The translations under genes and the position numbers were made by a program. Positions 7,801 through 25,128 of a stretch of 32,000 bases of DNA are shown here, piece after piece. Origin of the DNA: Candidatus Saccharimonadota bacterium (GTDB taxonomy: Bacteria; Patescibacteriota; Saccharimonadia; Saccharimonadales; UBA4665); NCBI GenBank assembly GCA_016699935.1, contig CP064992.1:420001-452000 (forward strand). The letters run 5' to 3'. How positions within the stretch are numbered: position 1 is the stretch's first letter; each line of letters starts with the position of its first letter. The notes under the pieces are model-generated. The model was not told the DNA's origin, searched no databases, and saw nothing but the letters and a program-made list of their open reading frames with translations.

Positions 7801-9065
7801 TAACGGCCCCTCCAAGGGTAGCTGCAACCTATCGTAGGAAGTTGTTTAATATCCGGTACGTTCGTGCTCTTGCCAATTGCCATAAGAAGGTTTTGCGGGC
7901 AAACGACTTTGCCATTAGTTTTAATAGCAAAATGCAGATGAGGGCCAGTCGAATTTCCGGTGCTTGCAGAGTGCATAATGAGCTGACCAGCCTCCACAGT
8001 ATCTCCTTTTTTTGCCCCAGGAACCGAACCACCGTCGCTGCCATGACCGTATTGCATTACAACCCCCCCTCCCACGTCTATTATAACGCCGTAACCAAGA
8101 CCCTCGGTCGCCGTACCTGCCGGTGCTGAAGTTATCTTGCCGCCTGCGACAGCGTACACCTTTTGACCGGGAGGCACGGGTATGTCGGCGGCAGGATAGT
8201 CGTGGTGTGGCTTCGAAAACCATTCTGGGTGCTGGTCAAACCACTTTTTATCAACTGGCAAGCTATAGTTTCCATTCAGAAAAGAACTTGAGCCCCCGTC
8301 CCCACAGCTAACAGCAGACGCCTGGTCACTAGAAGGGAACGAACCATATTTTTTCATAGCGTCAATTGCATAAGAAAGACGAGCGCTAACGCTACCAGAT
8401 TGATCTGCTGGCCTCTCGTACCCGACATACTTTCCGCCCGTTTTTTTATTTCCCTGGAACGCTAAGACGGCTTCGCGCAAATCGACCTGTTGCTTCAGGT
8501 CGTCGCCCGCCTGTTTTTCAGGGATGGAGGTTTTCCCTTCTAGCTGGCTCCAGACGAAAGCTATCTGTACGCCGAGGTTATTTGCTTCTGCAACAGTGTG
8601 CGCTGCCGTTTTTGTCTCTGGATTGACTGAGCTGATGAACTTCACGCCAGGAGTCCACTGTACAAGACCCCAGCCAGCGGTCGAGCCGCTCTCGAGGTAT
8701 TGTTCTGCAGTTGTTATTTGACTGGCTGGGGTGTTTTGCTTTCTTTGTGGCAACAACCCAGATTCTACCACCATATTCCCTATAATCCCCGCAGCTTGTA
8801 CTGGGGTTAGTCGCCCAGGCTCTGTCAGGTAATCGAAGATTGCTTTTCCGTTTTGTTCACTTGATCCGTTGGGTATATTAACGCCACCCGCAAGACAGCC
8901 CAAAAGCACCTGGTTTTTTTCGTACCAGACACTTCCAATAAGCACCATATCGAGGGCGTCACCATCAAGCGGTTCAGCGGTTGCGACGACGACATTGCCT
9001 AATATAAGGAGTACGCTAAGAATAGCCAAGATACTTTTTAAACGATTACTACATTTGTTTTTCAC
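7800..9065 (-). CDS. Secreted bifunctional peptidoglycan hydrolase: phage-tail-lysozyme-like domain plus C-terminal M23 (LytM) metallopeptidase, VirB1 analogue
   Basis: Signal peptide MKNKCSNRLKSILAILSVLLILGNVVVATA. Lysozyme-like motif AAGIIGNMVVESGLLP...GWGLVQWTPG. M23 motifs HHDYPAADIPVPPGQKVYAVAGGKI and STGPHLHFAIK. A GTG start overlaps the upstream stop (GTGA at 9062..9065). Confidence 0.75.
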   Translation of the reverse strand: MKNKCSNRLKSILAILSVLLILGNVVVATAEPLDGDALDMVLIGSVWYEKNQVLLGCLAGGVNIPNGSSEQNGKAIFDYLTEPGRLTPVQAAGIIGNMVVESGLLPQRKQNTPASQITTAEQYLESGSTAGWGLVQWTPGVKFISSVNPETKTAAHTVAEANNLGVQIAFVWSQLEGKTSIPEKQAGDDLKQQVDLREAVLAFQGNKKTGGKYVGYERPADQSGSVSARLSYAIDAMKKYGSFPSSDQASAVSCGDGGSSSFLNGNYSLPVDKKWFDQHPEWFSKPHHDYPAADIPVPPGQKVYAVAGGKITSAPAGTATEGLGYGVIIDVGGGVVMQYGHGSDGGSVPGAKKGDTVEAGQLIMHSASTGNSTGPHLHFAIKTNGKVVCPQNLLMAIGKSTNVPDIKQLPTIGCSYPWRGR

Positions 9066-10812
9066 TGTGGTAACGCCCCATACGCCTTAATAAGTATAGG
9101 TTGTAGGTTAGACGATTGAGCATTTCCCTGGATTACTCCCTGGTATGCCTGGAGGTGCAGATGTGGCTGTGTACCTTGTGCGCAAGCAGGCTCCCCAATC
9201 ACGCCTAACGTCTGCCCTTGCTGTATCTTTGCGCCAACCTCTGTTTTTAGGAGCGACCCGCCACGAAAATGTGCATAGAAATAGTAATTACCATCATCTC
9301 CTTTTATTTGTATACTGGGGTACCCACCAAGCTCTGGAGAGCAAGATGGCTTTGGTTTGTAGGTAACCACAGTTCCCCTACTGCGGCAACAATCTCAGTA
9401 CCCGGGGTGTCGAAAATATCTGCAGCCGGGTAGTCGTGGTGGCAGTTTGTTTGGCTGGTATAGCACCAAACCCATTTGGTTAATTTATAAGTCGCGTCTT
9501 GGTACTGCGCTGTCTTGATCCTGGTCTGTGTAGTTTTAAGAGGGAACGTAAAGTTACCCACCGTGCCAAGCTCACCGCCAAGCGTAACCGCTGTGTTCGT
9601 TGCGGGCGGGTTAGGTAAAAGACTCTTGTCATACAAACCAGCTCCAGCTGCCACGGAAGCACGAATCAAGAGGCAGGGGTTTGTTTGGTCATGTTCAGGA
9701 ACCTGGCTTATTTCGTTAATACGCGTTGTTGAGTTCCCCCAGGTAACTATATTGTTTGGATCGTCACACTTTGCCGACTCCCAATAGGCCTCTGGGTCAT
9801 TTATAAAAATTTGGTCATCCTCTGGGTAGCCGTACTGAGTAATGCCAAAAGGATCTTTTTCCGGTAGCTTAGCTGCTGCACTAGCATCACGCGATGCCAG
9901 AGAAGTAAGCGAACTCGTCAGCGACCCAAGTGGGTTCAAGGAAGTAGCTATCAAACTATCCTGCGCGCTACCTGAACTGCTCGGTACATTAAGCGCAATT
10001 TTTGATATAAGAGACCGACTGTTTTTTGTGTCAAACATCCGTGCGTACAGAGACGCCTGGCTATAGTCGTACTGCCTTTCTTCGGCATCGGCCTCGCGAA
10101 GCTGGGCTACCTGTGCATTTGAGAGCGCCTTTCCGCCCAGTCCAAAGTGTGCCGAATAGTTATTGAGTATATTCATTCCTCCGGCCATTGTCTCGAAGTA
10201 TCTAGCTCCACTTTCGTTTGGTGTAGACGCAATTATGTAGAATTTTTTAAACACGTCATCTTTTATCCATTTCATTAGCTGGACTAGTTGATCTGAGTTT
10301 ATTGCTGCAACGAGTTTTGCAAGAGGCTCTTTAACGAAGGCCAAAACATTATTTAGCAGACTATCCCTAACACTAACCCATACGTTCCCGATAAACCCCG
10401 GCAAAGCGAGCATTGGGTTATTTGTGATTCCTGCAATCGCAGCATTGGCTACGGTCACAAGGGCGCCCGTGGGGGAGCCTATAGCTACATTTGGGCAAAT
10501 GAGTGCGCCCGACGGATAACCTTGGCCATCATCGCACAGGGCCTTTGGTGTTGTACTTTCTGCGTATGCCGTTGGAAAGAGAGACGCCAACGGCTTTTGG
10601 CTCCCTCCGCCCATGATTGCACCATACAAAGGGCTGCTTTGTGCGCTACCCCCGCCTTGATCCCGCGACGAATCAGCTGCGTACAATTGTGAAAATGAGT
10701 TGAGCGTGGCCGGGTCAGCGGACCCGCTCATTAACTCACTTGCATACGTCAAAGCCATAGTTGCCGTACCAACCATAGCTGTCTCGTTCATGACATAGTT
10801 CATGTGCAACAT
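9062..10812 (-). CDS. Large protein with unknown N-terminal ~480-aa region and C-terminal M23 (LytM) peptidase domain, reading frame broken once
   Basis: ORF 9304..10812 ends in HHDYPAADIFDTPGTEIVAAVG. ORF 9062..9370 continues VVTYKPKP...YYFYAHF...GTQPHLHLQ. They join as ...AAVGGTVVTYKP... if the C4 run at 9375..9378 gains one base. An alternative start at ATG 10803 forms an ATGA overlap with the upstream stop. Confidence 0.7.
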
Positions 10813-11306
10813 GGCGGGTCCTGCTTTTGGGCACCGGTAATCAGGCTAGCGCCGAGGTCAATCCAACCAATAAAGGGAACCACCTTGACGGCAATTTTGG
10901 CTGTTGTTTCTCCGGCAAATTGTTTTATAAGGTATTCAACAGCGCCCTTCGAGCGGACTTCCTCAGCCTCTCTATTTATGTCAGTAATGTTTACTTGGTC
11001 ATGCGTCGATTGTAGGGCGAGAAGTCGCGCTTGCAGATCGCGTTGATAGTTTGTCATGCGCTCACCATTGCTGTCGGCGCTGCTCTCCAGGTCTGTACAC
11101 GCAAACCCCGCAAACGCACACTCAAGCGAGGTGCCAATAGAAGTGTTGAGTGGGGTTATAACACGCCGGAAAAATGTTCCCCTTGCCCAAGTAATGAGCT
11201 CTTGTTTGGTGGCTTTTATTTTCTTTCTAGTCTCACAAGCGACGATACAGTAACGGGGTCCGTACTTTCTACCTACAATAGGCTTTGCTATCGCCCAGAC
11301 ATACAT
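10800..11306 (-). CDS. Hypothetical protein (T4SS operon)
   Basis: 168-aa ORF co-oriented with and tightly packed against its neighbours. It has a helical charged middle (YQRDLQARLLALQSTHDQVNITDINREAEEVRSKG) and a hydrophobic C-terminal segment (KIAVKVVPFIGWIDLGASLITGA). I recognise no family. Its frame stays open upstream of the ATG, so fusion to 11321..12220 by an indel cannot be excluded. Confidence 0.5.
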   Translation of the reverse strand: MYVWAIAKPIVGRKYGPRYCIVACETRKKIKATKQELITWARGTFFRRVITPLNTSIGTSLECAFAGFACTDLESSADSNGERMTNYQRDLQARLLALQSTHDQVNITDINREAEEVRSKGAVEYLIKQFAGETTAKIAVKVVPFIGWIDLGASLITGAQKQDPPCCT

Positions 11307-11320
11307 TTTCTCCCTGAGCG

Positions 11321-12220
11321 TTAAGTCTTTTGTGGCTCGGCGTAGCTCCCGATTAAACTCCCTTTTCCTCTTAGCTGAGCAAAAGCCTTTCCTTCAAAAT
11401 CACGCGTATTACCGGTAAAGGTTCCCAAATCTATTCTGTCTTGTAGGTTTTTGCTGATTATAAATACTCTATTACCGGTACCTGTTGCCTCAAGTCGAAA
11501 CTCGATGCCTTTTTCAGCAAGCTTACCTTCTATGTTGGCGTCGCGCCAGGCTCGAAAGTTTGCAGTAACGATATTAGTTTTGCCACTAACATCGGCACAT
11601 GATTTTGTGCGCCGGGTGGTTGTACAGCCATTCTTTACCATACCAGGAACCAGGTACTTCACGACATAATAGTGAAATATGTTATCTCCCATTTTGCCGA
11701 CAGCTCGATTAGATACCGCGCTGTATGCATCATGAAGATTTGTTGGAATGTGAATAAACTGGAGCATAAGTAAGAATGAAAACCCTAAAATCCCCCTCCC
11801 CCAAGCACCGCACCAAAACCTCCAAACATCAACATCTTTTTCGTCTTGAAAGAAATGTTTTTTTCTTCGACTTCCCTTTTTCTTGTCCAGCGCTTCTTTT
11901 TCATCCGCACCAGCACCTGAGTAATTGAGGCTATCTGCAGCCTGGCTTTCTTTGTCGGATAGTTTTTCTGCGGAATCAAGTTTTGCTGACCCTGACTCTT
12001 TAGCGTCTGGGCTAGCAAACGAACCCTCAAGGTCGCTAAGGGCATTTTCGTCTGCAATGTTTGAGCCTGACTGGGACGACGAGGGCATAGCGAAATCCCG
12101 CTCAAGGTCATCTGCCGCAGGGGCGTTGTAGAGCTCCTCTAGCTGTTGCGGCGACATGTCTTGGTTGTCAAGGGTTTGTAGCCTCTTAGGTTTGTATTGT
12201 GCGTCGTCGTCTTGAGCCAT
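11321..12220 (-). CDS. Hypothetical bitopic membrane protein: acidic disordered N-terminus, one TM, ~150-aa external domain (candidate VirB8/TcpC-type scaffold)
   Basis: 299-aa ORF starting 2 nt after the virB4 stop. The first ~120 aa are D/E/S-rich. A basic stretch KKKGSRRKK and a hydrophobic segment FWCGAWGRGILGFSFLLMLQFIHI follow, then a mixed alpha/beta-looking C-terminal domain. The function is inferred from topology and context only. Confidence 0.5.
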   Translation of the reverse strand: MAQDDDAQYKPKRLQTLDNQDMSPQQLEELYNAPAADDLERDFAMPSSSQSGSNIADENALSDLEGSFASPDAKESGSAKLDSAEKLSDKESQAADSLNYSGAGADEKEALDKKKGSRRKKHFFQDEKDVDVWRFWCGAWGRGILGFSFLLMLQFIHIPTNLHDAYSAVSNRAVGKMGDNIFHYYVVKYLVPGMVKNGCTTTRRTKSCADVSGKTNIVTANFRAWRDANIEGKLAEKGIEFRLEATGTGNRVFIISKNLQDRIDLGTFTGNTRDFEGKAFAQLRGKGSLIGSYAEPQKT

Positions 12221-12222
12221 AG

Positions 12223-14148
12223 CTATGACAGGTTATTTGCGCTACCAGGGTATAGCTGATTTTGTAAATCGATAGTGCCCTGTGGTTGGTTTAGTTCCCC
12301 TTGCTTCATCGCTTGGACTTGTTGGGGGTTTGTTGTGATTAAGCCCGTCTCAGTTGGGCTGGCGACGATTTGGATATGTACATGATTTTGCCCAGCAAAG
12401 AAAAGCCCCTGACCGACTGGGAATTGTCCAAGACGTTTCTTTTCTTCCTCGGTGAGCTTAAAGACATCGCTCAGGACATCCACAGCACTACTCGATTGCT
12501 TGAGAAGGATCTGCATGCTGGCATTTGCAACAATGGCACGACCCATACGTGAACCCATAAAGTCCTCAACGTCTTGTGTTATGGTGGTAAGGCCAAGATT
12601 GTATTTGCGGCAGCGCTTGGCCATGCTGAAAAGGAAATTGGCGCTGTCCTCGTATTTCATGAGCTGCCAGGCCTCGTCGACGATGAGGATGCGTTTCTTT
12701 TTGCTCGCTTTTAGTCTTGTTCCAAATGTAGTTGAGTACGATGTACATAGCGACGGGACGCAGCTCGTCTTCCAGGTCGCGGACGTTGAACACGACTAGT
12801 GGGTTGTTGATATTGACATTGCTTTGCTGGCTGAATATACCTGCGAACGTGCCACTCGTGTATTTGCGAAGACGTTGTGCGAGTTGGGGCCGGTACCACC
12901 CATATGAAGCAGCGTGTCATACAAGTCTGCAATGGTTGGTGGCAAAGAAGAATGTGTCAGAGGGTCTTGTGTAATTCCAGCCTTTGCATAGGTGTCTATG
13001 AGTGCGGCATCCAGGTCTGCTTCTTCTGTGGGTGATAGTGCTGGAGCGAGCGTGCTGTTCCCTCCAAGCATCTGAGCCTGAGCGCCCCCCATCATGAGCC
13101 GCAAGAGTCCATGGAGCGTAATCAGGTTTGAGCGCAGCGCATTGTCTGCTTCCTCGTTGTCGACTACCTGAGGGAGGTCAAATGGATTAATACGTGTGGT
13201 GCTGTTGAGGCTAAGCCGGACGTATGCGCCGGCCACCGCATCACACATGCGTTCATATTCGTTCTCTGGGTCGATGATGAAAATCTCCGTACCGAACATC
13301 AGGCTTCGCAAAGCCTCCAACTTAACAGTGAAGCTTTTCCCTGCGCCCGCCTTGGCAAAGACGACTGAGTTACCGTTTTCAAGGCTGAAGCGGTCAAAGA
13401 TGACCAGACCACTATTGTGCATGTTGATGCCGTACAATATGCCATTGTCCTGGCTGAGGTCGGCGCTCGTAAACGGAAAACTAGTGCTAATTGCGCCGGT
13501 GCTCATGTTGCGGCGGATTTGGAGCTGGTCGGTCATTTGAGGTATTACGCTATTAAGGCCTTGCTCTTGTTGGGAAGTTGCCGCCTTGCTGTATACGAGT
13601 TGTTGACCAAGCATGCTCTCAACCTTGTGGCTGACAAACTCAAGCTCTTCCTGGCTCGTAGCGTATATAGTGAAATACAAACCGAACCGGAAAAAACGCT
13701 CCTCGCCGACTTGAAGCTTGTCGCGCATTTCCTCGGCGTCTAGGATGGCTGCTTGTTTACCGGGGTCGCGCACTCGACCCTTCTCGGAATCTATCTGAAG
13801 ACCAGCTTCGAGCTGAGTAACTTTTTTGCGAAGGTTTTCAAGGACAACTTGGCTTTCTACGGGGTATACATAGATAGAAAGATCCATTACCTCGTCAAGA
13901 TTGACGAGGCCGCTTAACCACCCCGTGTAAATCTGTCGGGGGTAGCCGTAAACGTAGTATGTACGAGCAAGTCGTGTGCCAATCTGGAAGTGCGTGCTAA
14001 AAAACTCAATACTACTAGGTGCTATAAAATCTCGTAGTGCCGTAATACCCCTACGAAAAGCCTCATTTACTTCTGCTTGCTCTTTTGCCTGCTGAACCTG
14101 GGCTAATGCAACAGGGTCAAGGGTTGGTTTTTTCTTACCAAAGGCCAT
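12223..14148 (-). CDS. virB4: VirB4/TrsE/ConE-class T4SS ATPase, reading frame broken twice
   Basis: The start MAFGKKK at 14148 has GGGAGG 8 nt upstream. Walker A is VVFAKAGAGKSFTVK, Walker B is RILIVDEAWQLM, and the C-terminal part reads RCRKYNLGLTTITQDVEDF...NASMQILLKQ. ORFs 12796..14280, 12566..12793 and 12223..12660 join at G4 12886..12889 (...GGTGPQLAQRLRKYTSGTFAGIFSQQSNVNINNPLVVFNVRDL...) and at T5 12698..12702 (...SEQKKRILIVDEAW...). Confidence 0.85.
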
Positions 14149-14221
14149 TAGGAACGCCTCCCATGTGCGCGAGGCAAGAGCAATCTTTGTTGCATCTGAA
14201 ACACATATAATAATGCAAACA

Positions 14222-15076
14222 TTACTGGAGCTCCCTTTGCAGATGTTGTTGCGGGGCCCTGCCCTCGCCCTTCTGTACAACTTCTGCCGTCAGATCATTA
14301 AAATTCTTTAACTGCTGTCTTGTTGCTGTGTCGGGGTTGTACGTATCGTAATAGAGCTCTATCAGCTCCTGAGTGTCTAGGGGTAGACCTTGGATGCCGC
14401 ATTGTTGTAACCCGCCAAGCACGGCTTGAACTCGGTTGCGGAGCTCGTCCTTTGCTTTCATAAGGTCGGGCTCATTAATCACAACATGATTCTCGGTCTT
14501 ACTAAACAGCTCGACGAAACCTGTGAAAAAGTTTTTACTCTGCGTAAGGGCTTTGTCTGGACCCAGTGCTGGCTCGTACGGAACTACAATGTAAAACTTC
14601 TTGTCCATAATGTTTGTTTGTAGCGCAAGCTGGTCTATATAGCCTATGTAGTCGTCCATGAGAAGAGCGAGTAGCATATTGTCGTGTTCCGTGCGAATCT
14701 TATCAAGCTTCTCTATGTATGGCTGTAAGTCAACCTTCTGAGAGCGTATGAAAATCTGCATCGGAAAGTACAAAGAGTTTAGAAACCCCTGATAGGCGTA
14801 TTCGGTTGACTCTTGCTCTTGGGGGCTCATAAGGTCAAAGTTTATGCTTTTGACCATAACAACCGCCCGGTAGCTGCCGTCGTTCATGATAACGATACCG
14901 TCGCGGATCTCGGCTATCTGCAAGGTGTTTTGGGTGCTATTCGGGTTACTTTTTGGAGCGGCAGCGGCTTGCTGGCCCGGGGTTTGTGGTATGGACTGCG
15001 GCGAAGCAGGATAGGTCGGGCTTTGTATGCTCGCTGGAGGCGTCTGAGTTGCATATGGTTGCTGGTTTGGGTCCAT
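14222..15076 (-). CDS. T4SS accessory protein resembling the N-terminal (non-ATPase) domain of Gram-positive VirB4 proteins, with a Pro/Gln-rich N-terminus
   Basis: 284 aa. After a P/Q-rich ~50 aa comes LQIAEIRDGIVIMNDGSYRAVVMVKSINFDLMSPQEQESTEYAYQGFLNSLYFPMQIFIRSQKVDLQPYIEKL. This is the pattern seen at the N-terminus of ConE/Orf16/TcpF-type VirB4 proteins. No Walker motifs are present. It sits directly upstream of virB4. Confidence 0.55.
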   Translation of the reverse strand: MDPNQQPYATQTPPASIQSPTYPASPQSIPQTPGQQAAAAPKSNPNSTQNTLQIAEIRDGIVIMNDGSYRAVVMVKSINFDLMSPQEQESTEYAYQGFLNSLYFPMQIFIRSQKVDLQPYIEKLDKIRTEHDNMLLALLMDDYIGYIDQLALQTNIMDKKFYIVVPYEPALGPDKALTQSKNFFTGFVELFSKTENHVVINEPDLMKAKDELRNRVQAVLGGLQQCGIQGLPLDTQELIELYYDTYNPDTATRQQLKNFNDLTAEVVQKGEGRAPQQHLQRELQ

Positions 15077-15098
15077 GCCTACGTCCTATCTTATCGAC

Positions 15099-16230
15099 TT
15101 AGCGAAGCGAGATTACAACTTCGCCGTCATCATGATCTGTTTCTTTTTTCACCTGCCGGGCAATAGTTGCGACGTCCAAATCATCGTTACTCGCGAGGTT
15201 CATTATAGCAGCCTGTCTCTCTGAAGTCACTTGTGCTTTTTGACGTTCGGCTTGTTGTTTTGTGGCTATTGCTGCTGCTTCATTCTGTTGGTTAACTCTC
15301 CGCTCCTCGGCTAGCTCTGCGGGAGTTTTGATGTGCTTCAAGTGGTCGTTAGCCGTTGTTTGTGTTTGGCTCGCCGTCTTAAGCTGCTGAGCCAAGGCTT
15401 CTTCCTCGGCGGTTGGTGTGGCCGCTTGTGTTACCGCGGGCGGTTCGCTAGCAGACGTCATGCCCGGCGCAACCACGGCGGCATTATCAAAGGTAGCTTG
15501 CCCGGCTACTGGCGGGGGTTGGTGCATAAACCAATAGTCATTCTGGGGGGTGCTTTGAGCTGATTGTGTCGGTGGTGGCAATGCGGGAGCCTGCATTAGC
15601 TGTATAAGCTGCTGTCGTTGGCTGGTAGCGGCACCGTGAATCATGGCATCAAAGTGTTGTGCGATTGGGCTTGCGCTTGGGTCGAGCATATCATCTGCTG
15701 CACGTATATCAAGCCCGCTCACCTCTTGCGGTAATGACATTGCATCGACAAGACGGTCTGACGCTACAGCATCAGACTGAAGGCCAGTAGAAACGCTCAC
15801 GTTTACGTTTTTAACTGCCCACCCTCGACTATCGATTGTATCGGCAAGAGCATGTAGTCGGCTTCTTACCTCGATCTGACTTAGTCCGTTTGTTAGACTT
15901 CGCTCAATCTTTTTGGGCACTGTAATGGTTACGAGTTCCTTGGCACCGCTTTGATCCCAGATGCGTTTGCGAGGCTTAAGTAAAAAGCGTAACTTCGCAA
16001 TGGCCCATACCTCAGTGGGTTGGTCGCCGTGCCAAGGAATGGCCAAAAACCAGCGAAGAGTGCGGGTGGAACAAAAAAAATGAGTAAAAATCCAACATTT
16101 TTTGTGAGGGCAAAAAGGAAAGATACAACAGGAAAGCCGAAATCGCAGCATAAATAAATTGCCGCAAGGACAATGGCCCAACGAGCTTATCTTCCGCTTC
16201 AACATCTTGCAAAACCTTATACGTCGCCAT
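15099..16230 (-). CDS. PrgI-family (VirB3-like) small-TM T4SS protein with a long Gln/Ala/Pro-rich C-terminal extension, reading frame broken twice
   Basis: The start MATYKVLQDVEAEDKLVGPLSLRQFIYAAISAFLLYLSF is the PrgI-family opening common in CPR genomes. A third frame supplies TM2 (FALTKNVGFLLIFFVPPALFAGF). The frame of ORF 15099..16205 then continues LAIPWHGDQPTEVWAIAKLRFLLKPRKRIW. The joins need +1 base in each of the A5 runs 16112..16116 and 16045..16049. Confidence 0.7.
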
Positions 16231-16285
16231 ACTGCTTATAGTATAACAGCACATTGGCAGCATCTGATGAGTGTGCACGGTATGC

Positions 16286-18437
16286 TTAGATTGTGGGCGC
16301 TTCGGTCATAGCAGCACGCCTGGCGGCCTCACTCATGCGTCCGCTTGAGTATTCGCGTCGTCTTGACGTGAACAAGTCAATGAGCTCTTGGTTCGCGCGT
16401 ACGTCGCTATTGCCGCGGCAGTAATCCATTATTTCCTGAGTTGACGCTGATCCTCCCCGTGCGTCTAATAGGGGTTGTAGAATTGTACGCATACCATCAG
16501 AGAGTTCCTCGGAGTAGTACTGCTGTTGTAATTGTGTGGCAAACTGTTCGCGAGCGTCAATCGAAGCACCCGAAGCCATGTCTTGGAAATTAGCGAAGGT
16601 TGCGAATTCGGATGCCAGTGTGTCCATGTCATTACTACCCGTAAGGAGACGATTGCCGTTACTTTCAAAACCGTCCATATTGCTGGTGAGGGTTGCGTTA
16701 AGACGCATACCACCCTCTCTGGCAACTTTTCGTGCCGTTCGTAGGTTGCCTAACTCGGCTTGGCTATTGCGCATGCTCTGGTATGATTGACTTCGCAGCA
16801 AATTTTCTTCATCGACGGTAAGGGCGCCATTGCCTTGCTCACCCATGGTAGCGATTCCTACGCGTTGGCTGAACGTCATGCCGCTAAAATCAGCACGGGT
16901 TTGGTTTTGGCCTAGGATGCCGCCGATATCTTCGTCGCTCATGACACCTTGCTTAATGAGATGATTTGAAGCTTCAGCAATAGCCCGAAAGTCCGTTTCG
17001 TGTGTTTCTTCATTAAACCACCCAGCCCCATCCATAGTTTGGCCACGGAAAGCGGCTGCCTTCATCGCTCGACTACCCATAGTTGTCCCAGTACCGGCTT
17101 CAAGCTGGGCCATACGCATACGTGCTCGTTGTTGCATTTGATGCTCACTAAGACCTTCTTGCGTCATAGCGTGCCTGTTCCTATTGACGTATTCGCGTAG
17201 ATAATCACCCCGCGAATTTGCGTAGATGGCGGGTATGGTCGCGTCGGTTGCCCCGAGTGAAAAGCCCTTGTCTTTTTCGGCTCGTTCGGCCGCTGCGTCC
17301 TGGATTAGCTTTTTCTCAGCCTGCCTATATTGACGCCTTCCAGATCGAGTCATGCTAACGCCTCCTTGCCTTGCTAGGGTGCTACGGCGGGCATATCCTG
17401 TCACAATTCCTGGACCCCTCTTGGCCCCAGTGGCATATTCGCCTTTTCTGTACTCAGAGCTATCGTGTAGGAACTTATTGCCACGTCCCATTGCCTTGCT
17501 ACCCAAGCCACTCGCCCAACCAATCGCTCCTCCCAGAACACCGCTGAATTTTTGTGCAATGGGTATGATGAGTAATATTGGCCCAAAGAAAAGAATGACC
17601 ACGAGTAAATAACCACCCGGCAGGTTATCCACTTGACTTGTGACCCGCGCCATTACCTCACCAGATGCAAGCAGGGCCATAATAACGGGGAATATTGTAA
17701 GGCTTGTCAGGGTTGTATTTTTCCAAAAAGACCAGATTTTTGGGTGCCAGGCAGTACGTATGACGCAATAGCGAGTGGTGCGAGTAATAAACAAAGCATT
17801 ATAACAATCCATCTTAGACCAAATATCATAAAGGCGATGAGTAATATCAGGCCAATGATGAGGAGTATAGTTGCAAACCCAATCCCTCCCAAGAAATACA
17901 GTTTCGGGACGCCCGTCACAATTAAAAGCAAAAGTGACGCCCAGTTATAAACTCCATTCGAGCTATCAACTTTCGCAATGGGCATAGTGGCAAATGGTCC
18001 GACGAGTATATCATGTGTCCAGCTTCCGATGTCGTTTGTTAGTTCTATAAAGAATTGCATGAGGTTCCAGGACAGGGCTATGCCCACGAGCGCAACGCCA
18101 AGACGAGGCATAAGCTTGCGTATAGTGTAAGCATCCAAAAATTCAAACCCGAGTGCTTGACTAATCACCATAGTTAGTCCAGCGATGACGATGATTGCAA
18201 TAGCAATGTTCCGAAAGCTTGCCCAGGCGTTATGCAGGTTGTCGGTTGCCTGTCCTGCTCCAGTTTTGCCAAAGACATCTTGAGACGGGAAAACATGAGC
18301 CCTTCGATATTTTGTGTCATTGAGCGCATGAATGCCTGCAGGCCTGAGGTCACAGGACAAATGATCCATTCCATAGTATCACCGTCAAACCCGCAAAGGC
18401 TCGTCGGGGCATTACCTGCGCCGTTATTATTAGTCAC
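16286..18437 (-). CDS. VirB6/TrbL-like polytopic T4SS membrane protein with a ~430-aa soluble C-terminal extension, reading frame broken twice
   Basis: ORFs 18174..18437, 17707..18369 and 16286..17812 join at 18287..18293 (...IEGLMFSPSQDVFGKTGAGQ...) and at T5 17737..17741 (...VLPGTQKIWSFWKNTTL...). At least 6 hydrophobic helices are present (IAIAIIVIAGLTMVI, LGVALVGIALSWNLMQFFI, LLLLIVTGVPKLYFLGGIGFATILLIIGLILLIAFMIF, IVIMLCLLLAPLAIA, LTIFPVIMALL, GYLLVVILFFGPILLIIPI). A GTG start overlaps the upstream stop (GTGA at 18434..18437). The family call rests on topology and context. Confidence 0.6.
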
Positions 18438-19474
18438 GCCCCGAGATTTGGTACTTTTGTTTTGCCGATCGCGCCGGTCGCCTTATCACTTTGCCCCCAT
18501 GTACAGGCGGCATTTGTAGCCCGGAGTGCTTCCGGCATGCCGGAAGCAAACGGATAGTTTTGGGTGCAAAAGTTTGCGTTCGTCTTGTTGTTAAACCCAT
18601 CCTGGCATGCCTTTAGCTCCGCAGAGCTACCGCTATAACGGTCTTCGCATGTTCCAGGTTGGTTACCTTGACCAGGCGTGTAGTTACTAAGCCACTCCTG
18701 TCCCACTACTGGGTCTGCCGCAAGACTATTAATGCTCTGAACCACTGTGCGACAATTAACCTGTTGCGAGTTGTACATGTCTTTACGGCTTATAAGAGCG
18801 TTTGGATTGTACTGCCGCCTTTCGGTTACAAACGTTCCATCAGGTTGTAAGACCTTTACGTCTACGACATCATCGGCTAAGCCCTGGCTGGTGTTGTTGT
18901 CTTTTGCTTCACACTGATTCAGAAACCCGAGCCAAAGAAAATATGAATATTGCAACAGCTTACTATTGCCATATGCAGCAAAAACGTCAAAACCAGTGTT
19001 GGAGTTAATAATGGCTTTAACTTTATTGCCGGTAGCCTGGTTTGCATCGAGGGCAATCTGACTTGAGTTATTTAAGTCAGAGCATGTCCCGTCACGTCGT
19101 GCGCCAATATCACACAAAAAATTTAGAGCGTCCTGCGGGACTGACCATGGAATCCCGAGAAAACTAATGGCTTCTGTGGCGTAAGTCTTATCATTACATT
19201 TCCGCGGGTCTTTCCCCGTGAGGCCTGTCGCAATGCTATTGCCTGGCCCGACATTCATGCTGTTTACGCTGGCATCGCCACTCATGTCAATGCTGTAACT
19301 ACCGCTACTAAAGCAATTGACGAGCCATGAGCTGTAGTAGAAGGCGCGAGCTTTATCCCAGGGATAAGAAGTTGGGTTGATAGCCGCAAAAGCTTTCATA
19401 TTAGGTAGCAGAACCAGTACTGCTATGGCGGCAACTACAGATAGTCCCACAAAGAGTCGACGCAATTTGCTCAT
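18434..19474 (-). CDS. Secreted cysteine-rich protein of unknown family (candidate surface or pilus-associated component)
   Basis: 346 aa with signal peptide MSKLRRLFVGLSVVAAIAVLVLLPNMKAFA. About 12 Cys residues are spread through the mature part (VNCF, RKCND, FLCDIG, GTCSD, NQCEA, VNCRT, GTCED, KACQD, NFCTQ, AACTW). It has its own promoter-like element just after the 19541..19579 hairpin. Confidence 0.6.
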   Translation of the reverse strand: MSKLRRLFVGLSVVAAIAVLVLLPNMKAFAAINPTSYPWDKARAFYYSSWLVNCFSSGSYSIDMSGDASVNSMNVGPGNSIATGLTGKDPRKCNDKTYATEAISFLGIPWSVPQDALNFLCDIGARRDGTCSDLNNSSQIALDANQATGNKVKAIINSNTGFDVFAAYGNSKLLQYSYFLWLGFLNQCEAKDNNTSQGLADDVVDVKVLQPDGTFVTERRQYNPNALISRKDMYNSQQVNCRTVVQSINSLAADPVVGQEWLSNYTPGQGNQPGTCEDRYSGSSAELKACQDGFNNKTNANFCTQNYPFASGMPEALRATNAACTWGQSDKATGAIGKTKVPNLGA

Positions 19475-19540
19475 GGTTTAACTATACTATTAAAGCCGTT
19501 TTTACCACAAGGCCAATAGAATGCATACGTAGCTATGCTA

Positions 19541-19579
19541 CTAAAAGAAGCTGACATGCCATATGTCAGCTTCTTTTAG
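19541..19579. terminator. Bidirectional intrinsic-terminator-like hairpin between two T4SS-locus genes
   Basis: Perfect 17-bp inverted repeat ctaaaagaagctgacat / atgtcagcttcttttag with a 5-nt loop. The GC-containing core is followed by TTTTAG on either strand. It lies about 120 nt downstream of the 19702 stop. Confidence 0.6.
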
Positions 19580-19701
19580 TATGATTGGCGGGGCTTATGA
19601 ACCGAGCTCCATATAACCAGGCTGCTGGGGTGCATATGATCGCACCGAAACCCAGCGTGCTTCCGCGGGCTGGCCCGCTACAGCAGGAAACTTAACAAAT
19701 T

Positions 19702-20679
19702 TCATTTGCCTCTGGCGGTAGCCACCATCGTTGTAGAAGTTGATGCGCATTCCCTCTCAGGTTTGTCTGTTCGTGCGCTATCCATTGCGGTGTTGCGCTC
19801 GTAGCCATCATTTTGTGGATTTATTGCCTCCTGTGTTCGTAGAAGTGTAACTTTTCGGAGGAGGTCATCCTCTGGCAAGGCTGGGTCATCATAAATAGCG
19901 AAGAGGGTCTTGAGTGCAGTTTCGATCTTGGCTGGGTTAACAGTTGGGCTGCCATTGCGCGTCAGTGACCATGAGATTTCGGTATAGGTGGTTATCCACT
20001 GGTCGACTATTTCTTGTGCGGTATTTGTTTCTGAAGCAGGCGCCGGTTTCACATAACGGTCTATCTTGTGAGATTCGGCGACTTGTTTGCGGGTGTATGG
20101 CTCTTGGCCTTTTCGCATGAATTGCGCGAATAAACGACGCTCTTCTATGGGATACGCAAAATATGCCGGACCCCAAGGGGTACCGTTGAGCCTGTCAATA
20201 ATCTCCTTCTCGGCGGCAGTCAGGGAGTTGTACAGCGGGTTCGTCTCTACGCCAAGTATGTTCGCACTTGCCTCTGGAGTTAGGAGACCAGCGTCAGCAC
20301 CTTTGCGAGTTGGATCAATTTGTCTAGCGGCCGGTGCAGCCCCCTCTCTGCTACGAGAAAATGCATAGACTCCTCCTAATCCTGCTACTGCTAGCCCAAA
20401 AACGCCACCTAGTACTGCTCGTCGTGATGGACGACCAGCTGTGCCTTGTTGTTCGGAAGCTGTTGAAGGCGGTGGTAATGCTGGTGCCTCTTTGGTTTGT
20501 TGTTCGGGAGCTGTTGAAGGCTGGGTTGGTAATGCTGGTGTCTCGGCAACATCGGGTTGAAATGCCGCCTCCGTCGTTGTGGCAGCTAATGACGCAGCGG
20601 TTGTTTCACGAGACTGCTCGCTACCGACTCCTATGTCCAGTCGTTTCGGTTCAGGTTGTCTTATCACTACATCTGTCAT
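19702..20679 (-). CDS. Hypothetical bitopic membrane protein (first gene of the minus-strand T4SS operon) with a Pro-rich repeat-bearing N-terminus
   Basis: I prefer the ATG at 20679 (MTDVVIRQPE), which has AAGGA 6 nt upstream, over the GTG at 20700. The N-terminal ~95 aa are P/T/Q/A-rich and contain a duplicated PALP..PST(A)(P/S)EQQ unit. A segment RPSRRAVLGGVFGLAVAGLGGVYAF (one TM) follows, then a ~220-aa C-terminal domain of unknown family. Confidence 0.55.
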   Translation of the reverse strand: MTDVVIRQPEPKRLDIGVGSEQSRETTAASLAATTTEAAFQPDVAETPALPTQPSTAPEQQTKEAPALPPPSTASEQQGTAGRPSRRAVLGGVFGLAVAGLGGVYAFSRSREGAAPAARQIDPTRKGADAGLLTPEASANILGVETNPLYNSLTAAEKEIIDRLNGTPWGPAYFAYPIEERRLFAQFMRKGQEPYTRKQVAESHKIDRYVKPAPASETNTAQEIVDQWITTYTEISWSLTRNGSPTVNPAKIETALKTLFAIYDDPALPEDDLLRKVTLLRTQEAINPQNDGYERNTAMDSARTDKPERECASTSTTMVATARGK

Positions 20680-20731
20680 CTTATTCCTTTCGACAATCAC
20701 CCAGATTGTTCAACACATTATAATCGAAAAC

Positions 20732-20760
20732 ATTTTAGCATAAACATAACATATTGTCAA
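20732..20760 (-). promoter_or_regulatory. Near-consensus sigma-70-type promoter for the minus-strand T4SS operon
   Basis: The minus strand reads TTGACA (20760..20755), a 17-nt spacer, then TGc-TAAAAT (-10 at 20737..20732). It lies about 50 nt upstream of the ATG at 20679. Confidence 0.55.
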
Positions 20761-20814: not shown

Positions 20815-20843
20815 TTGAAGGAAGTCGCTGAGCATTATATAGT
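20815..20843 (+). promoter_or_regulatory. Candidate promoter for the pilin operon
   Basis: TTGAAG (20815..20820), a 17-nt spacer, then TATAGT (20838..20843). The first pilin ATG is at 20855 with no Shine-Dalgarno sequence between, so the 5' UTR would be very short. Confidence 0.4.
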
Positions 20844-20854: not shown

Positions 20855-21679
20855 ATGAACATGCGCACAAAAACACTTTTTGCTATTGTGGGGCTTATTA
20901 TAATGGGCACCGCTCTCATGTCGCTACCAGGGCGAGTATATGCGTCTGTGGGTGATGTGGCTAACTGCCCGACTGGCCAAACTAACTTGGTCAAAAGTCC
21001 CCGGACATGCTGCCCAACAGGTCATCATACTGATACTCAGGACTGTTTTGTCGCAAAATACGTGAACCCAGCAATAAAGTTGTTCAGCATGATTGCCGGT
21101 GTTGCAATAATTGCGGGAGTTATTATGGGGGGTATACAGTATTCTGCCTCAACAGGAGACCCGCAAAAAGCCGCCGCTGCGAAATCCAAAATATCCAAAG
21201 CGCTCGTAAGTCTTATGGTGTTTATGTTTTTATTCGCTGGTATCCAGTTTATGTCTCCCGGAGCGCTGAATAAAACCTCCACGCCAGCAGCTGGTACGGG
21301 ATCGCTTGCTACGCGTTGCTCAAAGCCGTTTCTTGGTCTTAAGCCTTGGTTCGCGTATCTCCCTGATGATGCCTTTGCGGATGGTTCTGGTGGGGGAAAG
21401 ACGTGTGATGTTACAAACTTTAAGCTTTTAGGAGACGACAGCACGAAGAGCCATTTACTACCAGTTGTGTTAGCGCTTGTCGATACACTCGTGCGAGTGG
21501 CTGGGCTTGTTGCGGTAGGGTTTGTGATTACTGGTGGGATTTTGCTGACGACGAGCCAAGGAGAGCCAGATAAAACTAAAAAGGCTCGCGAGACAATCAT
21601 TAACGCCCTAATTGGACTTGTTGTAGCTATAGTGGCTGCAGTGGTCGTATCTTACATAGGCGGGAGACTTTCGCAATGA
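20855..21679 (+). CDS. T4SS pilin (TrbC/VirB2-like, CPR/Gram-positive type), tandem two-domain form
   Basis: Signal peptide MNMRTKTLFAIVGLIIMGTALMSLPGRVYA, then a Cys-rich stretch NCPTGQTNLVKSPRTCCPTGHHTDTQDC. Two pilin cores follow: IAGVAIIAGVIMGGIQYSASTGDPQKAAAAKSKISKALVSLMVFMFLF and VAGLVAVGFVITGGILLTTSQGEPDKTKKARETIINALIGLVVAIVAAVV. Confidence 0.75.
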   Translation: MNMRTKTLFAIVGLIIMGTALMSLPGRVYASVGDVANCPTGQTNLVKSPRTCCPTGHHTDTQDCFVAKYVNPAIKLFSMIAGVAIIAGVIMGGIQYSASTGDPQKAAAAKSKISKALVSLMVFMFLFAGIQFMSPGALNKTSTPAAGTGSLATRCSKPFLGLKPWFAYLPDDAFADGSGGGKTCDVTNFKLLGDDSTKSHLLPVVLALVDTLVRVAGLVAVGFVITGGILLTTSQGEPDKTKKARETIINALIGLVVAIVAAVVVSYIGGRLSQ

Positions 21680-21975
21680 TTAAACTATTTGTTCGTCTTG
21701 CTGCAGACATTGACTATACGTCCTTGCCAAACACCGGAGCTACCGGTGATGTTGCGAAAGATTCTATCCCCGAGATACTCCGTATAGTATTTGGCATTTC
21801 GGGCTCTATTGCGTTCCTCATCATTGTTATTAGTGGGCTGAGATATATATTAGCAACCGGCGATCCTGCCAAAATGGCTCAAGCAAAAAAGGGAATCCTT
21901 TACGCGGTCATAGGATTGGTCATTGCGCTTTCTGGCTACTCAATCGTTACTCTAGTCGTAAGGGGGTTGTCGTGA
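21676..21975 (+). CDS. T4SS pilin paralogue (short form, no obvious signal peptide or cysteines)
   Basis: 99 aa with an ATGA overlap to the previous gene. Pilin core: ISGSIAFLIIVISGLRYILATGDPAKMAQAKKGILYAVIGLVIALSGYSIV. Confidence 0.7.
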   Translation: MIKLFVRLAADIDYTSLPNTGATGDVAKDSIPEILRIVFGISGSIAFLIIVISGLRYILATGDPAKMAQAKKGILYAVIGLVIALSGYSIVTLVVRGLS

Positions 21976-22391
21976 TTGGGGCAGTGGGCGTTCGCATACT
22001 CCGACGGGCCACCACGTTTGTGGTGATTTGTGCAGTCATGGGTGCGATTACGACGGCGTTTCCGAGTAGGGTAGACGCAAAAAGCATTATTAGTGACGCA
22101 TGTGCCACTGCACCAGATTCAGAAACTTGTAAAAGCGATAGTGCAAATGCTACTCAAAATCCGCTTACTGGGACTTCAGGCTTCATCTATAAGGTTTCTA
22201 GAATCGTTGCCCTGGTAGCAGGTATGGCGGCTATTATAGTAATAATAGTGAGCGGTATTCGCTACATGACATCGGGTGGAGATAGTCAGAAAATATCGTC
22301 AGCTAAGGGGACTCTGGTCGGTGCGGTTATAGGGCTGGTAGTTATTGTATTGGCGCAAGTAATAATAACGTTTGTAATTAAGAGGTTATAA
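21972..22391 (+). CDS. T4SS pilin paralogue
   Basis: GTG start in a GTGA overlap, with AGGGGG upstream. Signal-like N-terminus RRATTFVVICAVMGAITTAFPSRVDA. Cys pair in DACATAPDSETCKSD. Core: VAGMAAIIVIIVSGIRYMTSGGDSQKISSAKGTLVGAVIGLVVIVLAQVIITFVI. Confidence 0.75.
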   Translation: MIGAVGVRILRRATTFVVICAVMGAITTAFPSRVDAKSIISDACATAPDSETCKSDSANATQNPLTGTSGFIYKVSRIVALVAGMAAIIVIIVSGIRYMTSGGDSQKISSAKGTLVGAVIGLVVIVLAQVIITFVIKRL

Positions 22392-22394
22392 GAT

Positions 22395-22874
22395 ATGAAG
22401 CATGGTATAAAGGCGTTCTTCTGTGCCCTTGCGCTATCGATGGGCATAAGTGGTATTGTTGTGATTTCAGGCTCGTCCAAGATGGCTTATGCGCTGACAC
22501 CAAATCAACAGGCAGTCTGTGAGGCTATCGATAGTGGCGCTGACTGTAAAGATGATACTCCGGGGGGAGGAACCCAAATTGACTCTGTTATAAAAACAGT
22601 CGTTCGCATATTAGGTGTAGTCGCAGGCATCGTGGCGGTTATTATGATTATTGTTTCGGGTATTAAGTATATAAGCTCAGGCGGGGATAGTAGCAAGGTT
22701 GCGAGTGCAAAGTCGGCACTCGTGTACGCTATTGTTGGATTATTTATCGTTGCGTTGTCACAGGTAATCGTTCGCTTTGTATTAAGCCAATCTACCCAAG
22801 CAACCGTTACTTGTCCGCCCGGCCAATCTCGCAATGCTGATGGTTTATGCGTGATGAAAGTAGAAAAACTTTGA
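22395..22874 (+). CDS. T4SS pilin paralogue with an extra C-terminal Cys-loop extension
   Basis: AGAGG RBS. Signal peptide MKHGIKAFFCALALSMGISGIVVISGSSKMAYA. Cys pair in AVCEAIDSGADCKDD. Core: VAGIVAVIMIIVSGIKYISSGGDSSKVASAKSALVYAIVGLFIVALSQVIVRFVL. Tail: TVTCPPGQSRNADGLCVMK. Confidence 0.75.
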   Translation: MKHGIKAFFCALALSMGISGIVVISGSSKMAYALTPNQQAVCEAIDSGADCKDDTPGGGTQIDSVIKTVVRILGVVAGIVAVIMIIVSGIKYISSGGDSSKVASAKSALVYAIVGLFIVALSQVIVRFVLSQSTQATVTCPPGQSRNADGLCVMKVEKL

Positions 22875-22937
22875 GTTGAAACCATCAATCATAAGTGGTA
22901 TAAAGAAAGTAATCAAAAACGAAAGGAATTACTTAAT

Positions 22938-23369
22938 ATGATAAAAAACTTTAGGACCAAGCTCGCTATTTTTTTTGCAGGCGCAGCGCTTTTGGCTGTA
23001 CCATTGTTGGTGTCTACGCCAGCAAGCGCTGCTGTAGATATCGGCAAATGTGTTGGCCAGGGGGTGGATATAAATGGTGCAATTGACGGGGAATGTACCT
23101 CAACCTCAGATGAACCGGGTGCAGGAAATACAGATATTACTGATGTAATTACACTCATAGTGAATATTTTCTCAATAGTGGTTGGCTTTCTTGCGGTCAT
23201 TATGATTATTTGGGGCGGTCTGCGTTATATTACTTCTGGCGGTGATAGTGGCAAGATTACCACGGCAAAAAACACCATAATTTATGCACTCATTGGTCTT
23301 GTGATTGTCGCCCTTGCTCAGTTCATCGTTCGATTCGTACTTTCCAAAGCGGGCGATATCGCGCCGTAA
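22938..23369 (+). CDS. T4SS pilin paralogue
   Basis: AAGGAA RBS. Signal peptide MIKNFRTKLAIFFAGAALLAVPLLVSTPASA. Cys pair in GKCVGQGVDINGAIDGECTS. Core: VVGFLAVIMIIWGGLRYITSGGDSGKITTAKNTIIYALIGLVIVALAQFIVRFVL. Confidence 0.75.
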   Translation: MIKNFRTKLAIFFAGAALLAVPLLVSTPASAAVDIGKCVGQGVDINGAIDGECTSTSDEPGAGNTDITDVITLIVNIFSIVVGFLAVIMIIWGGLRYITSGGDSGKITTAKNTIIYALIGLVIVALAQFIVRFVLSKAGDIAP

Positions 23370-23390
23370 CATTGGGGTAGTTTGAGATTT

Positions 23391-23418
23391 AAAATGCCCG
23401 TTACATACGGGCATTTTT
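23391..23418 (+). terminator. Rho-independent terminator of the pilin operon
   Basis: 11-bp stem aaaatgcccgt / acgggcatttt with loop tacat. The T-run continues to 23418. It lies 22 nt after the pilin-5 stop. Confidence 0.75.
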
Positions 23419-23434
23419 CTTTGGATAATAATAG

Positions 23435-23970: not shown

Positions 23971-24111
23971 AATAGTTATTACCCTCCGCCGGCATGCTTG
24001 CCGGATTACAAAATAGATAGCGTCTTGCGTGTTTGTATTAAATTCAGTATAACTGAGGCAAATAACAGCGTGCAAGACGGGCGCACTTATTTACAACGGA
24101 TTAATCACAAC

Positions 24112-24840: not shown

Positions 24841-24880
24841 CAAGATAAAAGAGCCGCCAGCAGGCGACTCTTTTATCTTG
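24841..24880. terminator. Bidirectional terminator hairpin between comFC and tRNA-Ser
   Basis: 17-bp stem with one mismatch: caagataaaagagccgcc / ggcgactcttttatcttg, loop agca. The GC core is followed by TTTTAT on both strands. Confidence 0.6.
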
Positions 24881-24971
24881 GCGGAGAGAGAGGGATTCGA
24901 ACCCTCGCAGGGACTCTCGCCCCTCTAACGATTTAGCAAACCGTCCCCTTCAGCCACTTGGGTACCTCTCC
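24879..24971 (-). tRNA. tRNA-Ser (anticodon GCT), CCA encoded
   Basis: The minus strand reads GGAGAGGTACCCAAGTGGCTGAAGGGGACGGTTTGCTAAATCGTT...GAGGGTTCGAATCCCTCTCTCTCCGCCA. Anticodon loop is TTGCTAA, there is a long variable arm, the T-arm is GAGGG/TTCGAAT/CCCTC, and the acceptor stem pairs. Confidence 0.85.
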
Positions 24972-25128
24972 TTACTAAAGAGGGGCTGCCCCTCTGCTGC
25001 ACTGGTAGTAATGAATCCAACCAGTGTCTGCATACCTCCAGAAGCTCGGCTGTAGCCTCCGGTTCCCCCAGTCGTACTTTTCGTCTGGACTAGATTATTC
25101 TAACAGAAGACAGGGTATCTGTTAACAT

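Follow-up and report, generated by a model that had tools for sequence, protein, structure and literature searches.

An ordered array of six VirB2-like pilin domains beside the replication origin of a Saccharimonadia genome

Why should one type IV secretion system (T4SS) be accompanied by a whole row of different pilin genes? The question is raised by a stretch of 32,000 nucleotides, hereafter the window, from a Candidatus Saccharimonadota bacterium (contig CP064992.1 of assembly GCA_016699935.1, positions 420,001 to 452,000). Between positions 20855 and 23369 of the window, five open reading frames (ORFs) on the forward strand, here called c1 to c5, hold six pilin cores of two helices each; the two cores of c1 are called c1A and c1B. 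An initial annotation of this DNA offered two answers: a heteropolymeric fibre, or a repertoire of alternative tips that serve host range or antigenic variation. The first fits the data assembled here better, and the second is disfavoured. We conclude, with a probability that we put at about 0.55, that the array is a conserved VirB2-like module of six domains, part of the T4SS of monoderm type that Saccharimonadia encode on the chromosome near the origin, that it is orthologous to the genes SEML1_0014-0019 of Southlakia, and that its products co-assemble heteromerically. The phenomenon is already published, and the window is a member of a described kind, not a new kind of system. What is new here is the positional comparison of 80 species-level loci, which covers the order of the domains, their fusions, their motifs and cysteines, and the promoter-like gap before c5.

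That the five ORFs, present where the initial annotation had placed them, are paralogues of the VirB2/TrbC type agrees with the Pfam profiles: PF18895 (T4SS_pilin) matches all of them with 46 to 62 bits (56.4 bits for c5), above its gathering cut-off of 26.6, while PF04956 (TrbC/VirB2) matches c5 with 30.7 bits against a cut-off of 27.9, and c2 to c4 below the cut-off. When the six cores are aligned, they share the motif [GS]-G-[IL]-x-[YL]-x-x-[ST]-x-G-[DE]-[PS]-x-K-x3-A-[KR], flanked by two hydrophobic helices, at pairwise identities of 22-55%. The two-helix architecture was judged from hydropathy and from AlphaFold2 (AF2) models of c1 and c5, which contain helical hairpins. A signal peptide, two hydrophobic helices and a short, polar, positive loop make up the common plan of c1, c3, c4 and c5; c2 has the hairpin only. 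In the model of c1 (predicted local distance difference test score, pLDDT, 79.6), two helical hairpins are accompanied by two small modules that contain cysteines and are folded with confidence; that of c5 (pLDDT 68.5) has a single hairpin, at residues 64-99/107-141. A search with c5 returned 4317 homologues, and c1 is 100% identical to the NCBI protein IPL68_02830 of a Candidatus Saccharibacteria metagenome-assembled genome (MAG).

The five proteins differ in what precedes and follows these cores. The first, c1 (20855..21679, 274 amino acids), is a double pilin that occupies positions 1 and 2 of the canonical array, and PF18895 matches it in two stretches. Its inferred layout consists of a signal peptide (residues 1-30), a cysteine-knot loop (31-66, with C38, C52, C53 and C64), core A (67-138), a folded linker (139-205) with C155...FLGLKPWFAYLP...C184, and core B (206-274). 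The position-3 pilin, c2 (21676..21975, 99 amino acids), has neither cysteines nor an N-terminus that resembles a signal peptide, as had been noticed before; its core is preceded by an 'ID..LP' motif, here LPNTG. At position 4, c3 (21972..22391, 139 amino acids) has a signal peptide, the cysteine pair C44/C53, the motif NPLTG and the core. At position 5, c4 (22395..22874, 159 amino acids) has a signal peptide, the loop VCEAIDSGADC, the core and, beyond it, a C-terminal loop CPPGQ...C (residues 140-152, nucleotides 22812-22850, + strand). At position 6, c5 (22938..23369, 143 amino acids) has a signal peptide, the loop CVGQGVDING...C and the most conserved core of the array. Signal peptides were judged from hydropathy, and their cleavage sites are putative.

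Of the 14 cysteines in the mature proteins, none falls in a core: all are in the segments before the cores or in tails. In addition, c3 and c4 have one cysteine each within the signal peptide. A cysteine-bracketed segment precedes every domain except c2. The cysteine strings quoted in the initial annotation are correct as far as they go, but its inventory overlooked a sixth pair, C155/C184, in the linker of c1.

Other classes of pilins were considered for these proteins and rejected. Type IV pilins, of the kind found in type IV pili and type II secretion systems, do not fit N-termini that are of Sec type, lack a class III leader and precede two helices per core. Nor do sortase-assembled Gram-positive pilins: the sole LPXTG motif, the LPNTG of c2, is N-terminal to the helices, and the orthologues keep only 'LP'. 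This LPNTG, at residues 16-20 of c2 (21721-21735), is a perfect sortase motif placed ahead of both helices. Its position and its poor conservation make a coincidence probable, but the motif may instead be a processing site of this signal-less pilin.

Are the order and the individuality of the six domains peculiar to the window? The species representatives of GTDB were scanned with a profile of c5 orthologues, which confirmed at least 501 relatives among at least 599 pattern matches. The 80 species-level loci that were kept come nearly all from Saccharibacteria, Saccharimonadales or entries named unclassified bacterium; three are labelled as other phyla (L059, L075 and L080, in our numbering of loci). 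A hidden Markov model built on the cores finds arrays in essentially every one of these loci that has sufficient flank. With each domain typed by its best match to the six cores of the window, the prevailing order is c1A, c1B, c2, c3-like, c4/c5-like, c5; some species have arrays of 7-9 genes, through additional c5-like copies at the 3' end. The statistics by position given below are drawn from the 49 loci, each from one species and numbered between L004 and L083, that have exactly six domains and a complete flank.

Each position has its own signature. Position 1 has a signal peptide in 48 of the 49 loci and a pre-core segment of 25-246 amino acids, with 2-10 cysteines, an even number in 47 of them. 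At position 2, where a signal peptide is usually absent, there are exactly two pre-core cysteines in 45 of 49, in the motif C..FLGLxxWYxYL..C. The signal peptide is absent from position 3 in 47 loci and cysteines in 38; the motif is ID..LP. Positions 4 to 6 have a signal peptide in 46-48 loci and exactly two cysteines in 43-47 (43 for position 4), with the respective motifs C..C..NPxxG, vCxxiGsgxdC (also written VCxxIGSGxDC among the orthologues of c4) and CLsQGxxL..C. The exposed segments had been called hypervariable. This is true between paralogues only: positional orthologues in at least 49 species keep both the motifs and the positions of the cysteines, and the segments are paralogue-specific, not hypervariable. 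Conservation is nonetheless uneven, with a mean pairwise identity of 21-29% in pre-core segments against 42-72% in cores; the core of position 6 reaches a mean of 72%, and those of the other positions 42-54%.

The C-terminal loop of c4 had been described as an echo of the CPTGQ string near the N-terminus of c1, and the echo turns out to be a recurrent small module, also seen as CPIGQ in Pontibacillus. A CPxGQ module occurs in the N-terminal loops of position 1 in 9 of the 49 species and in the C-terminal tails of position 5 in 6; a C-terminal loop of the form C[PA]xGQ-x(5-8)-G-x-C was found at position 5 only, in 6 of the 49. The C-terminal loop has the look of a small disulfide module that position 5 can have or lack.

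Neighbouring domains of the array are also repeatedly joined into one polypeptide. A fusion of positions 1 and 2 is found in the clade of the window, namely in the window itself, in L001/L004, L002, L006, L010, L014, L016 and L071, and in at least 60 database proteins; the head-to-tail fusion of two pilin cores that had been proposed for c1 is thus genuine, being common to at least 60 homologues. Over 60 fused orthologues of c1, the conservation of each of the six cysteines is 90% or more, and the N-terminal loop has the consensus CPxG...VCCPxG...C. Positions 2 and 3 are fused in L018, L021, L023, L025, L031 (the complete genome CP025011), L079 and L080, where the linker retains the 'LP', and positions 3 and 4 in L014. 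Each fusion retains an even number of membrane helices, which keeps the topology consistent, and every one links a C-terminus predicted to be outside to an N-terminus predicted to be outside; consequently, the signal-less pilin of position 3 should also have its N-terminus outside. We infer that these repeated, independent fusions of neighbours are, as in the Rosetta-stone argument, the typical mark of partners in a single complex.

The spacing of the genes sets the last one apart. The pairs c1/c2 and c2/c3 each overlap by 4 nucleotides (ATGA and GTGA, respectively), c3 and c4 are separated by 3 nucleotides, and c4 and c5 by 63. Since the start and stop codons of c1 to c4 overlap or nearly abut, these genes are expected to be co-expressed, and c2 is predicted to be translationally coupled to c1 through the ATGA overlap. 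The comparison shows a similar pattern: in the 49 species, the median gap is 76 nucleotides ahead of the last gene and 0 elsewhere in the array.

Two promoter-like sites accompany this arrangement. The one before c1 (20815..20843, + strand) reads TTGAAG-17-TATAGT, and its -10 element ends only 11 nucleotides before the ATG, so the mRNA leader would be very short; the pattern CTTGAx-N17-TATAGT is kept 5' of c1 in L084, L085, L086, L004 and L002, with diverged spacers. The other, in the c4-c5 gap (22876..22904, + strand), reads TTGAAA-17-TATAAA, with a TGG just 5' of the -10 element. A generic promoter scan missed it, the -10 element ending in A, and the site was assessed by pattern count and conservation. 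The pattern TTGAA-N16-18-TATAR occurs twice in the 32-kb window, at these two places, against 0.42 occurrences expected; the element of the gap is also present, with diverged spacers, in L004, L084, L085, L086 and L087; and the strict pattern TTGA[AC]-N17-19-TATA[AG] lies in the gap before the last gene in 14 of the 49 species, against 0.3 expected. Downstream, the array ends at a hairpin with a T run that resembles an intrinsic terminator (23384..23421, + strand; -17.3 kcal/mol, z = -4.4 against shuffles), and GC hairpins with T runs also lie 3' of c5 in L085, L086, L004 and L002. We propose that c5 is probably the major subunit, and c1 to c4 stoichiometric minor subunits. The grounds are that c5 has its own promoter-like site in a conserved gap, a strong ribosome-binding site, a terminator, the slowest evolution and the best match to TrbC, and that arrays which reach 7-9 genes do so through c5-like copies only.

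How old are the copies? Tandem Repeats Finder (TRF) found no tandem repeats in the array, and a scan for direct repeats found a single stretch of 35 nucleotides, at 66-77% identity, within a transmembrane helix, and no silent cassettes or invertible elements. The absence of repeats at the DNA level, together with cores that are only 22-55% identical, indicates that the copies are ancient and diverged, not recent duplicates; the initial annotation had called them diversified. In the exposed loops of the closest available pairs, the proportion of nonsynonymous differences (pN) is 0.04-0.3 against 0.6-1.0 for synonymous differences (pS), with pS saturated in every pair, so that the Nei-Gojobori ratio dN/dS cannot be quantified. 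The pN of the loops is only few-fold above that of the cores, and it is the signal peptides that diverge fastest. A pN so far below pS would fit purifying selection, and at the resolution allowed by a saturated pS, there is no sign of positive selection.

The array may not evolve as a single block. Identity to relatives ranges over 39-87% for c1-c4, 78-87% for Hsp20 and 23-57% for the VirB6-like protein, the last two being neighbours of the array; the pilins c1-c4 thus change faster than Hsp20 and more slowly than the VirB6-like protein. The loci L086 (3878-6551) and L087 (2256-4910), on contigs from different samples that both end shortly after c5, are 45-60% identical at the nucleotide level in c1-c3 and 64-83% in c4, and 99-100% identical over the whole remainder of both contigs, which begins at the c4-c5 gap and takes in c5. 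Such a jump means either that recombination recently broke the locus at this point or that the assembly is chimeric. The window itself groups with L086 for c1-c3 (82, 86 and 67% amino acid identity) and not for c4 or c5. Over the 49 species, the identity matrices of positions 1-4 correlate with one another at 0.31-0.44, to be compared with 0.38 for the two halves of Hsp20, taken as a ceiling; for the matrix of position 5, no correlation exceeds 0.23; and that of position 6 correlates at 0.35 with the downstream Hsp20 and hardly at all with positions 1-4. The correlations suggest three blocks that may be exchangeable, namely positions 1-4, position 5 and position 6. This mosaic would fit recombination between blocks; chimeric metagenome contigs or heterogeneous rates are also conceivable.

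The following mechanism can be outlined. The proteins would insert in the membrane with N- and C-termini outside, and their cysteine pairs would form disulfide-stabilised loops. All six domains would co-assemble into one surface structure associated with the T4SS, a pilus or a conduit that spans the wall. The c5 type would be the abundant, polymerising subunit, and the five coupled domains upstream would be stoichiometric minor subunits that form a tip, a cap or an initiation complex, perhaps in replacement of the missing VirB5; the assembled structure would mediate contact or transport with the host bacterium. Co-assembly is favoured because of the fixed order of six positions, the repeated fusions of neighbours and the disulfide loops that are specific to each position. 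The array is ancient and ordered, and it is probably non-redundant as well, since all six Southlakia pilins are essential in transposon sequencing, or Tn-seq (PMC10633639). A more elaborate version can be imagined: c5 polymerises, while domains 1-5 each give a single copy to a hetero-oligomeric layer that caps or initiates the fibre, possibly with one domain for every start of a five-start helix; there they replace the VirB5 pentamer and bear the host-recognition surface, with blocks 1-4, 5 and 6 recombined among naturally competent lineages. In all its details this is a speculative picture, and we think it unlikely to be correct as it stands.

Several points weigh against the heteromeric module. 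Foldseek comparisons of the c1 and c5 models with the PDB gave no significant match to any solved structure, pilins included, and when the c5 alignment was used as a profile against PDB sequences, nothing but chance matches to histone-fold proteins came up, which leaves the Pfam profiles as the sole ground for the pilin fold. In the literature that we found, including PMC12857230, filaments of these proteins in Patescibacteria are not reported. The essentiality of the upstream Southlakia genes in Tn-seq could be, in part, a matter of polar effects on the last gene. The promoters and the role of c5 as major subunit are read from sequence patterns, and the strict motif is found in only 14 of 49 species. 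Finally, frameshifts in the T4SS genes, described below, may leave decay of the locus conceivable.

Another reading is that the proteins are VirB2-like channel parts resident in the membrane or wall, forming a short heteromeric conduit or ring on a VirB6-like platform, or Sec-exported proteins with some other role. Homologous proteins, with a signal peptide, a cysteine loop and a hairpin, are encoded by two tandem genes in the T4SS of a megaplasmid of Pontibacillus, a member of the Bacillota, and there is a resemblance, below the cut-off, to the family NF045849 of a Mycoplasma integrative and conjugative element (ICE); these systems are not known to make a pilus. Filament preparations of the saccharibacterium M. 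amalyticus yielded as their only pilins the immunoglobulin (Ig)-like PamA and PamB, and no VirB2-like proteins, a result that also weighs against our preferred reading. The fold, a hairpin of two helices, is moreover so simple that a fibre cannot be deduced from it, and earlier work on TM7x speaks of a 'Sec secreted array' or of putative effectors. On the other side stand the matches to the TrbC/VirB2 and T4SS_pilin profiles, together with the conserved disulfide-bracketed segments and the large exposed domains of position 1, which suggest surface display; two hydrophobic helices per domain oppose a soluble effector. We regard this reading as possible, if rather doubtful.

There is also the possibility that the copies are interchangeable surface pilins, alternated for host range or for evasion of immunity or phages, as proposed for the VirB2 proteins of Bartonella and Anaplasma and speculated for Patescibacteria in PMC12102498. 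Among orthologues, divergence of the pre-core segments is indeed two to three times as fast as that of the cores; at position 1, the N-terminal domain is highly variable in length and cysteine content; the number of c5-like copies changes, giving arrays of 6-9 genes; and the mosaic of pilin blocks between relatives, seen in L086/L087, in the grouping of the window with L086 for c1-c3 only and in the near absence of correlation between positions 5 and 6 and positions 1-4, speaks for it as well. However, alternation sits badly with an order that is fixed and with orthologues that keep their own motif and cysteine pattern at each position in at least 49 species. The genes are, as predicted, co-transcribed and translationally coupled; the DNA repeats, silent cassettes and invertible elements of a switching system were not found in the array; pN in the exposed loops is far under pS, saturated as the latter is; adjacent domains are joined in one polypeptide again and again; and six of six Southlakia orthologues are required. 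An alternating repertoire is therefore improbable in our judgement. Order, fusions, disulfide loops and promoter-like gap together lead us to expect one heteromeric structure in which a single subunit predominates, and not a set of alternative pilins.

We now turn to the surroundings of the array. The stretch opens with yidC, rnpA, dnaA and dnaN (692-5228), which places the T4SS and the pilins directly beside the replication origin; a T4SS near the origin has been reported for many Patescibacteria and for Southlakia. A T4SS cluster of the monoderm type occupies 6298..20700 on the reverse strand, divergent from the pilins. Among its genes are one for a VirB1-like lysozyme/M23 hydrolase (7800-9065), a split one for a VirB4-like ATPase with matches to TraG P-loop/AAA_10 domains (12223-14280) and one for a VirB6/TrbL_3-like protein (16286-19474) that is broken into four frames, all on the reverse strand. 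A divergent promoter-like site (20732..20760, - strand; TTGACA-17-TAAAAT, 11 of 12 consensus positions) precedes these genes and is conserved as ATTTTAGCATAAA...TTGTCAAT in L084, L085 and L004. Downstream of the array lie a convergent Hsp20 gene and then a gene for a ComF-like phosphoribosyltransferase (PRTase), and relatives have the same layout, a five-gene array followed by the Hsp20 and ComF-like genes.

Four of the genes in the window are split by frameshifts: dnaN (4121-5228), the VirB4-like gene, the TrbL_3-like gene, in its four frames, and carA (27890-29318). It is thus legitimate to ask whether the array is itself an artefact of annotation or assembly in a region of low quality, with the fusion in c1 created by an indel. 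The essential gene dnaN being affected too, the frameshifts most likely stem from indel errors in a MAG assembled from long reads and are not marks of pseudogenes. The five pilin ORFs are intact, with lengths equal to those of their orthologues, and a fused c1 with conserved linker motifs occurs in at least 60 independent assemblies; the idea of an artefact is effectively refuted.

Some smaller observations concern the neighbours. Between the pilins and the VirB6-like gene lies an ORF of 332 amino acids (19702-20700, - strand), with a region rich in Pro, Ala, Thr and Gln and one hydrophobic segment. It has no detectable similarity to the ORFs of 349-399 amino acids at the same position in L001 and L002, and going by these sequences it would be either extremely fast-evolving or replaced. 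The Hsp20 ORF (23482-24075, - strand) has 197 amino acids from its first TTG and its relatives about 162; the true start is probably the ATG at 23970. Four tRNA genes, Ser-GCT, Ser-TGA, Arg-GCG and Ser-CGA, lie 3' of the ComF-like gene (24879-27835); Southlakia has a tRNA-Ser at the equivalent place.

In diderm bacteria, T4SSs normally have one pilin gene together with VirB5. The VirB2, TrbC and TraA pilins of these systems (PF04956) share with the window the signal peptide, the two helices, the short positive loop and the location in a T4SS cluster. The window differs by its six pilin domains, by the lack of a recognisable VirB5, by its long cysteine-bracketed N-terminal extensions and by its monoderm host.

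A counterpart of the architecture appeared when plasmids were searched with tblastn: the megaplasmid NZ_CP062975 of Pontibacillus sp. ALD_SL1 (L088 11851-12763; IMZ31_RS20915/20920) carries a pair of genes with the same succession of signal peptide, cysteine pair and hairpin, and with the loop motif Y-I-x-S-x-G-D/N...EEAK; one of the two has CPIGQ. The pair adjoins a gene for a CD1110-family VirB4 and one for an M23 hydrolase, and there are two copies only. Its first gene is annotated as an Mbov_0395-family pilin-like protein (NCBIfam NF045849), a model to which the proteins of the window score 23-38 bits, below the cut-off of 40. It is often said that VirB2 homologues are missing from Gram-positive T4SSs, and the Pontibacillus pair does not agree with this.

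The T4SSs of Bartonella, Anaplasma and Rickettsia have several diverged VirB2 copies per locus, as in the window (cited in PMC12102498); those copies are taken to be variants that share a single role and differ in antigenicity or in interaction with the host, whereas the positions of the window are distinct orthologous types, with neighbours fused. Repertoires of the Neisseria pilE/pilS type depend on switching repeats, silent cassettes or invertible segments, of which the array of the window has none. A 2026 preprint on a 'novel CPR pilus', considered as an account of these genes, was rejected: Pam pili are Ig-like fibres built by donor-strand exchange, and the T4SS is never mentioned there.

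Within Patescibacteria, arrays of this kind have been published, and the rarity implied by the initial annotation, according to which most T4SSs encode a single major pilin, is outdated. A catalogue of 441 VirB2 arrays, of 2-11 pilin genes each, was drawn from 383 Patescibacteria assemblies, with enrichment in Saccharimonadia and Microgenomatia (Quinonero-Coronel et al. 2025, PMC12102498). The mean identity within these arrays is 25% and the maximum 54%, and the authors suggest an adaptation to different hosts (PMC12102498). Like the array of the window, they are tandem, divergent, positive for PF18895/PF04956 and near virB4 and dnaA. The catalogue makes no mention of a fixed positional orthology, of pilin-pilin fusions, of cysteine pairs or of an internal promoter, and it prefers versatility of host range, which the present comparison does not favour. 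A review of T4SSs from the same year highlights six 'structurally conserved but sequence-divergent' pilins and poses the question whether a monoderm T4SS builds a pilus (PMC12857230).

The nearest known system is that of Southlakia epibionticum ML1. Its genes SEML1_0014-0019 encode six PF18895 proteins, all classified 'GD ES ES' in Tn-seq, that is, essential (Wang et al. 2023, PMC10633639); essentiality is demonstrated in Southlakia only, and in this one species tested the saccharibacterial T4SS, pilin cluster included, is essential for the epibiotic lifestyle. The Southlakia array likewise has six tandem PF18895 domains close to dnaA, a divergent gene for a VirB6/TrbL-like protein of about 1090 amino acids and a convergent Hsp20 gene downstream. 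Its gaps are small or overlapping except for about 80 nucleotides before the last gene, as in the window. Two differences stand out: the window and its close relatives have the extra ORF of 332 amino acids between the pilins and the VirB6-like gene; and the six domains, encoded by six separate genes in Southlakia, are carried by five in the window, where positions 1 and 2 form a single protein of 274 amino acids.

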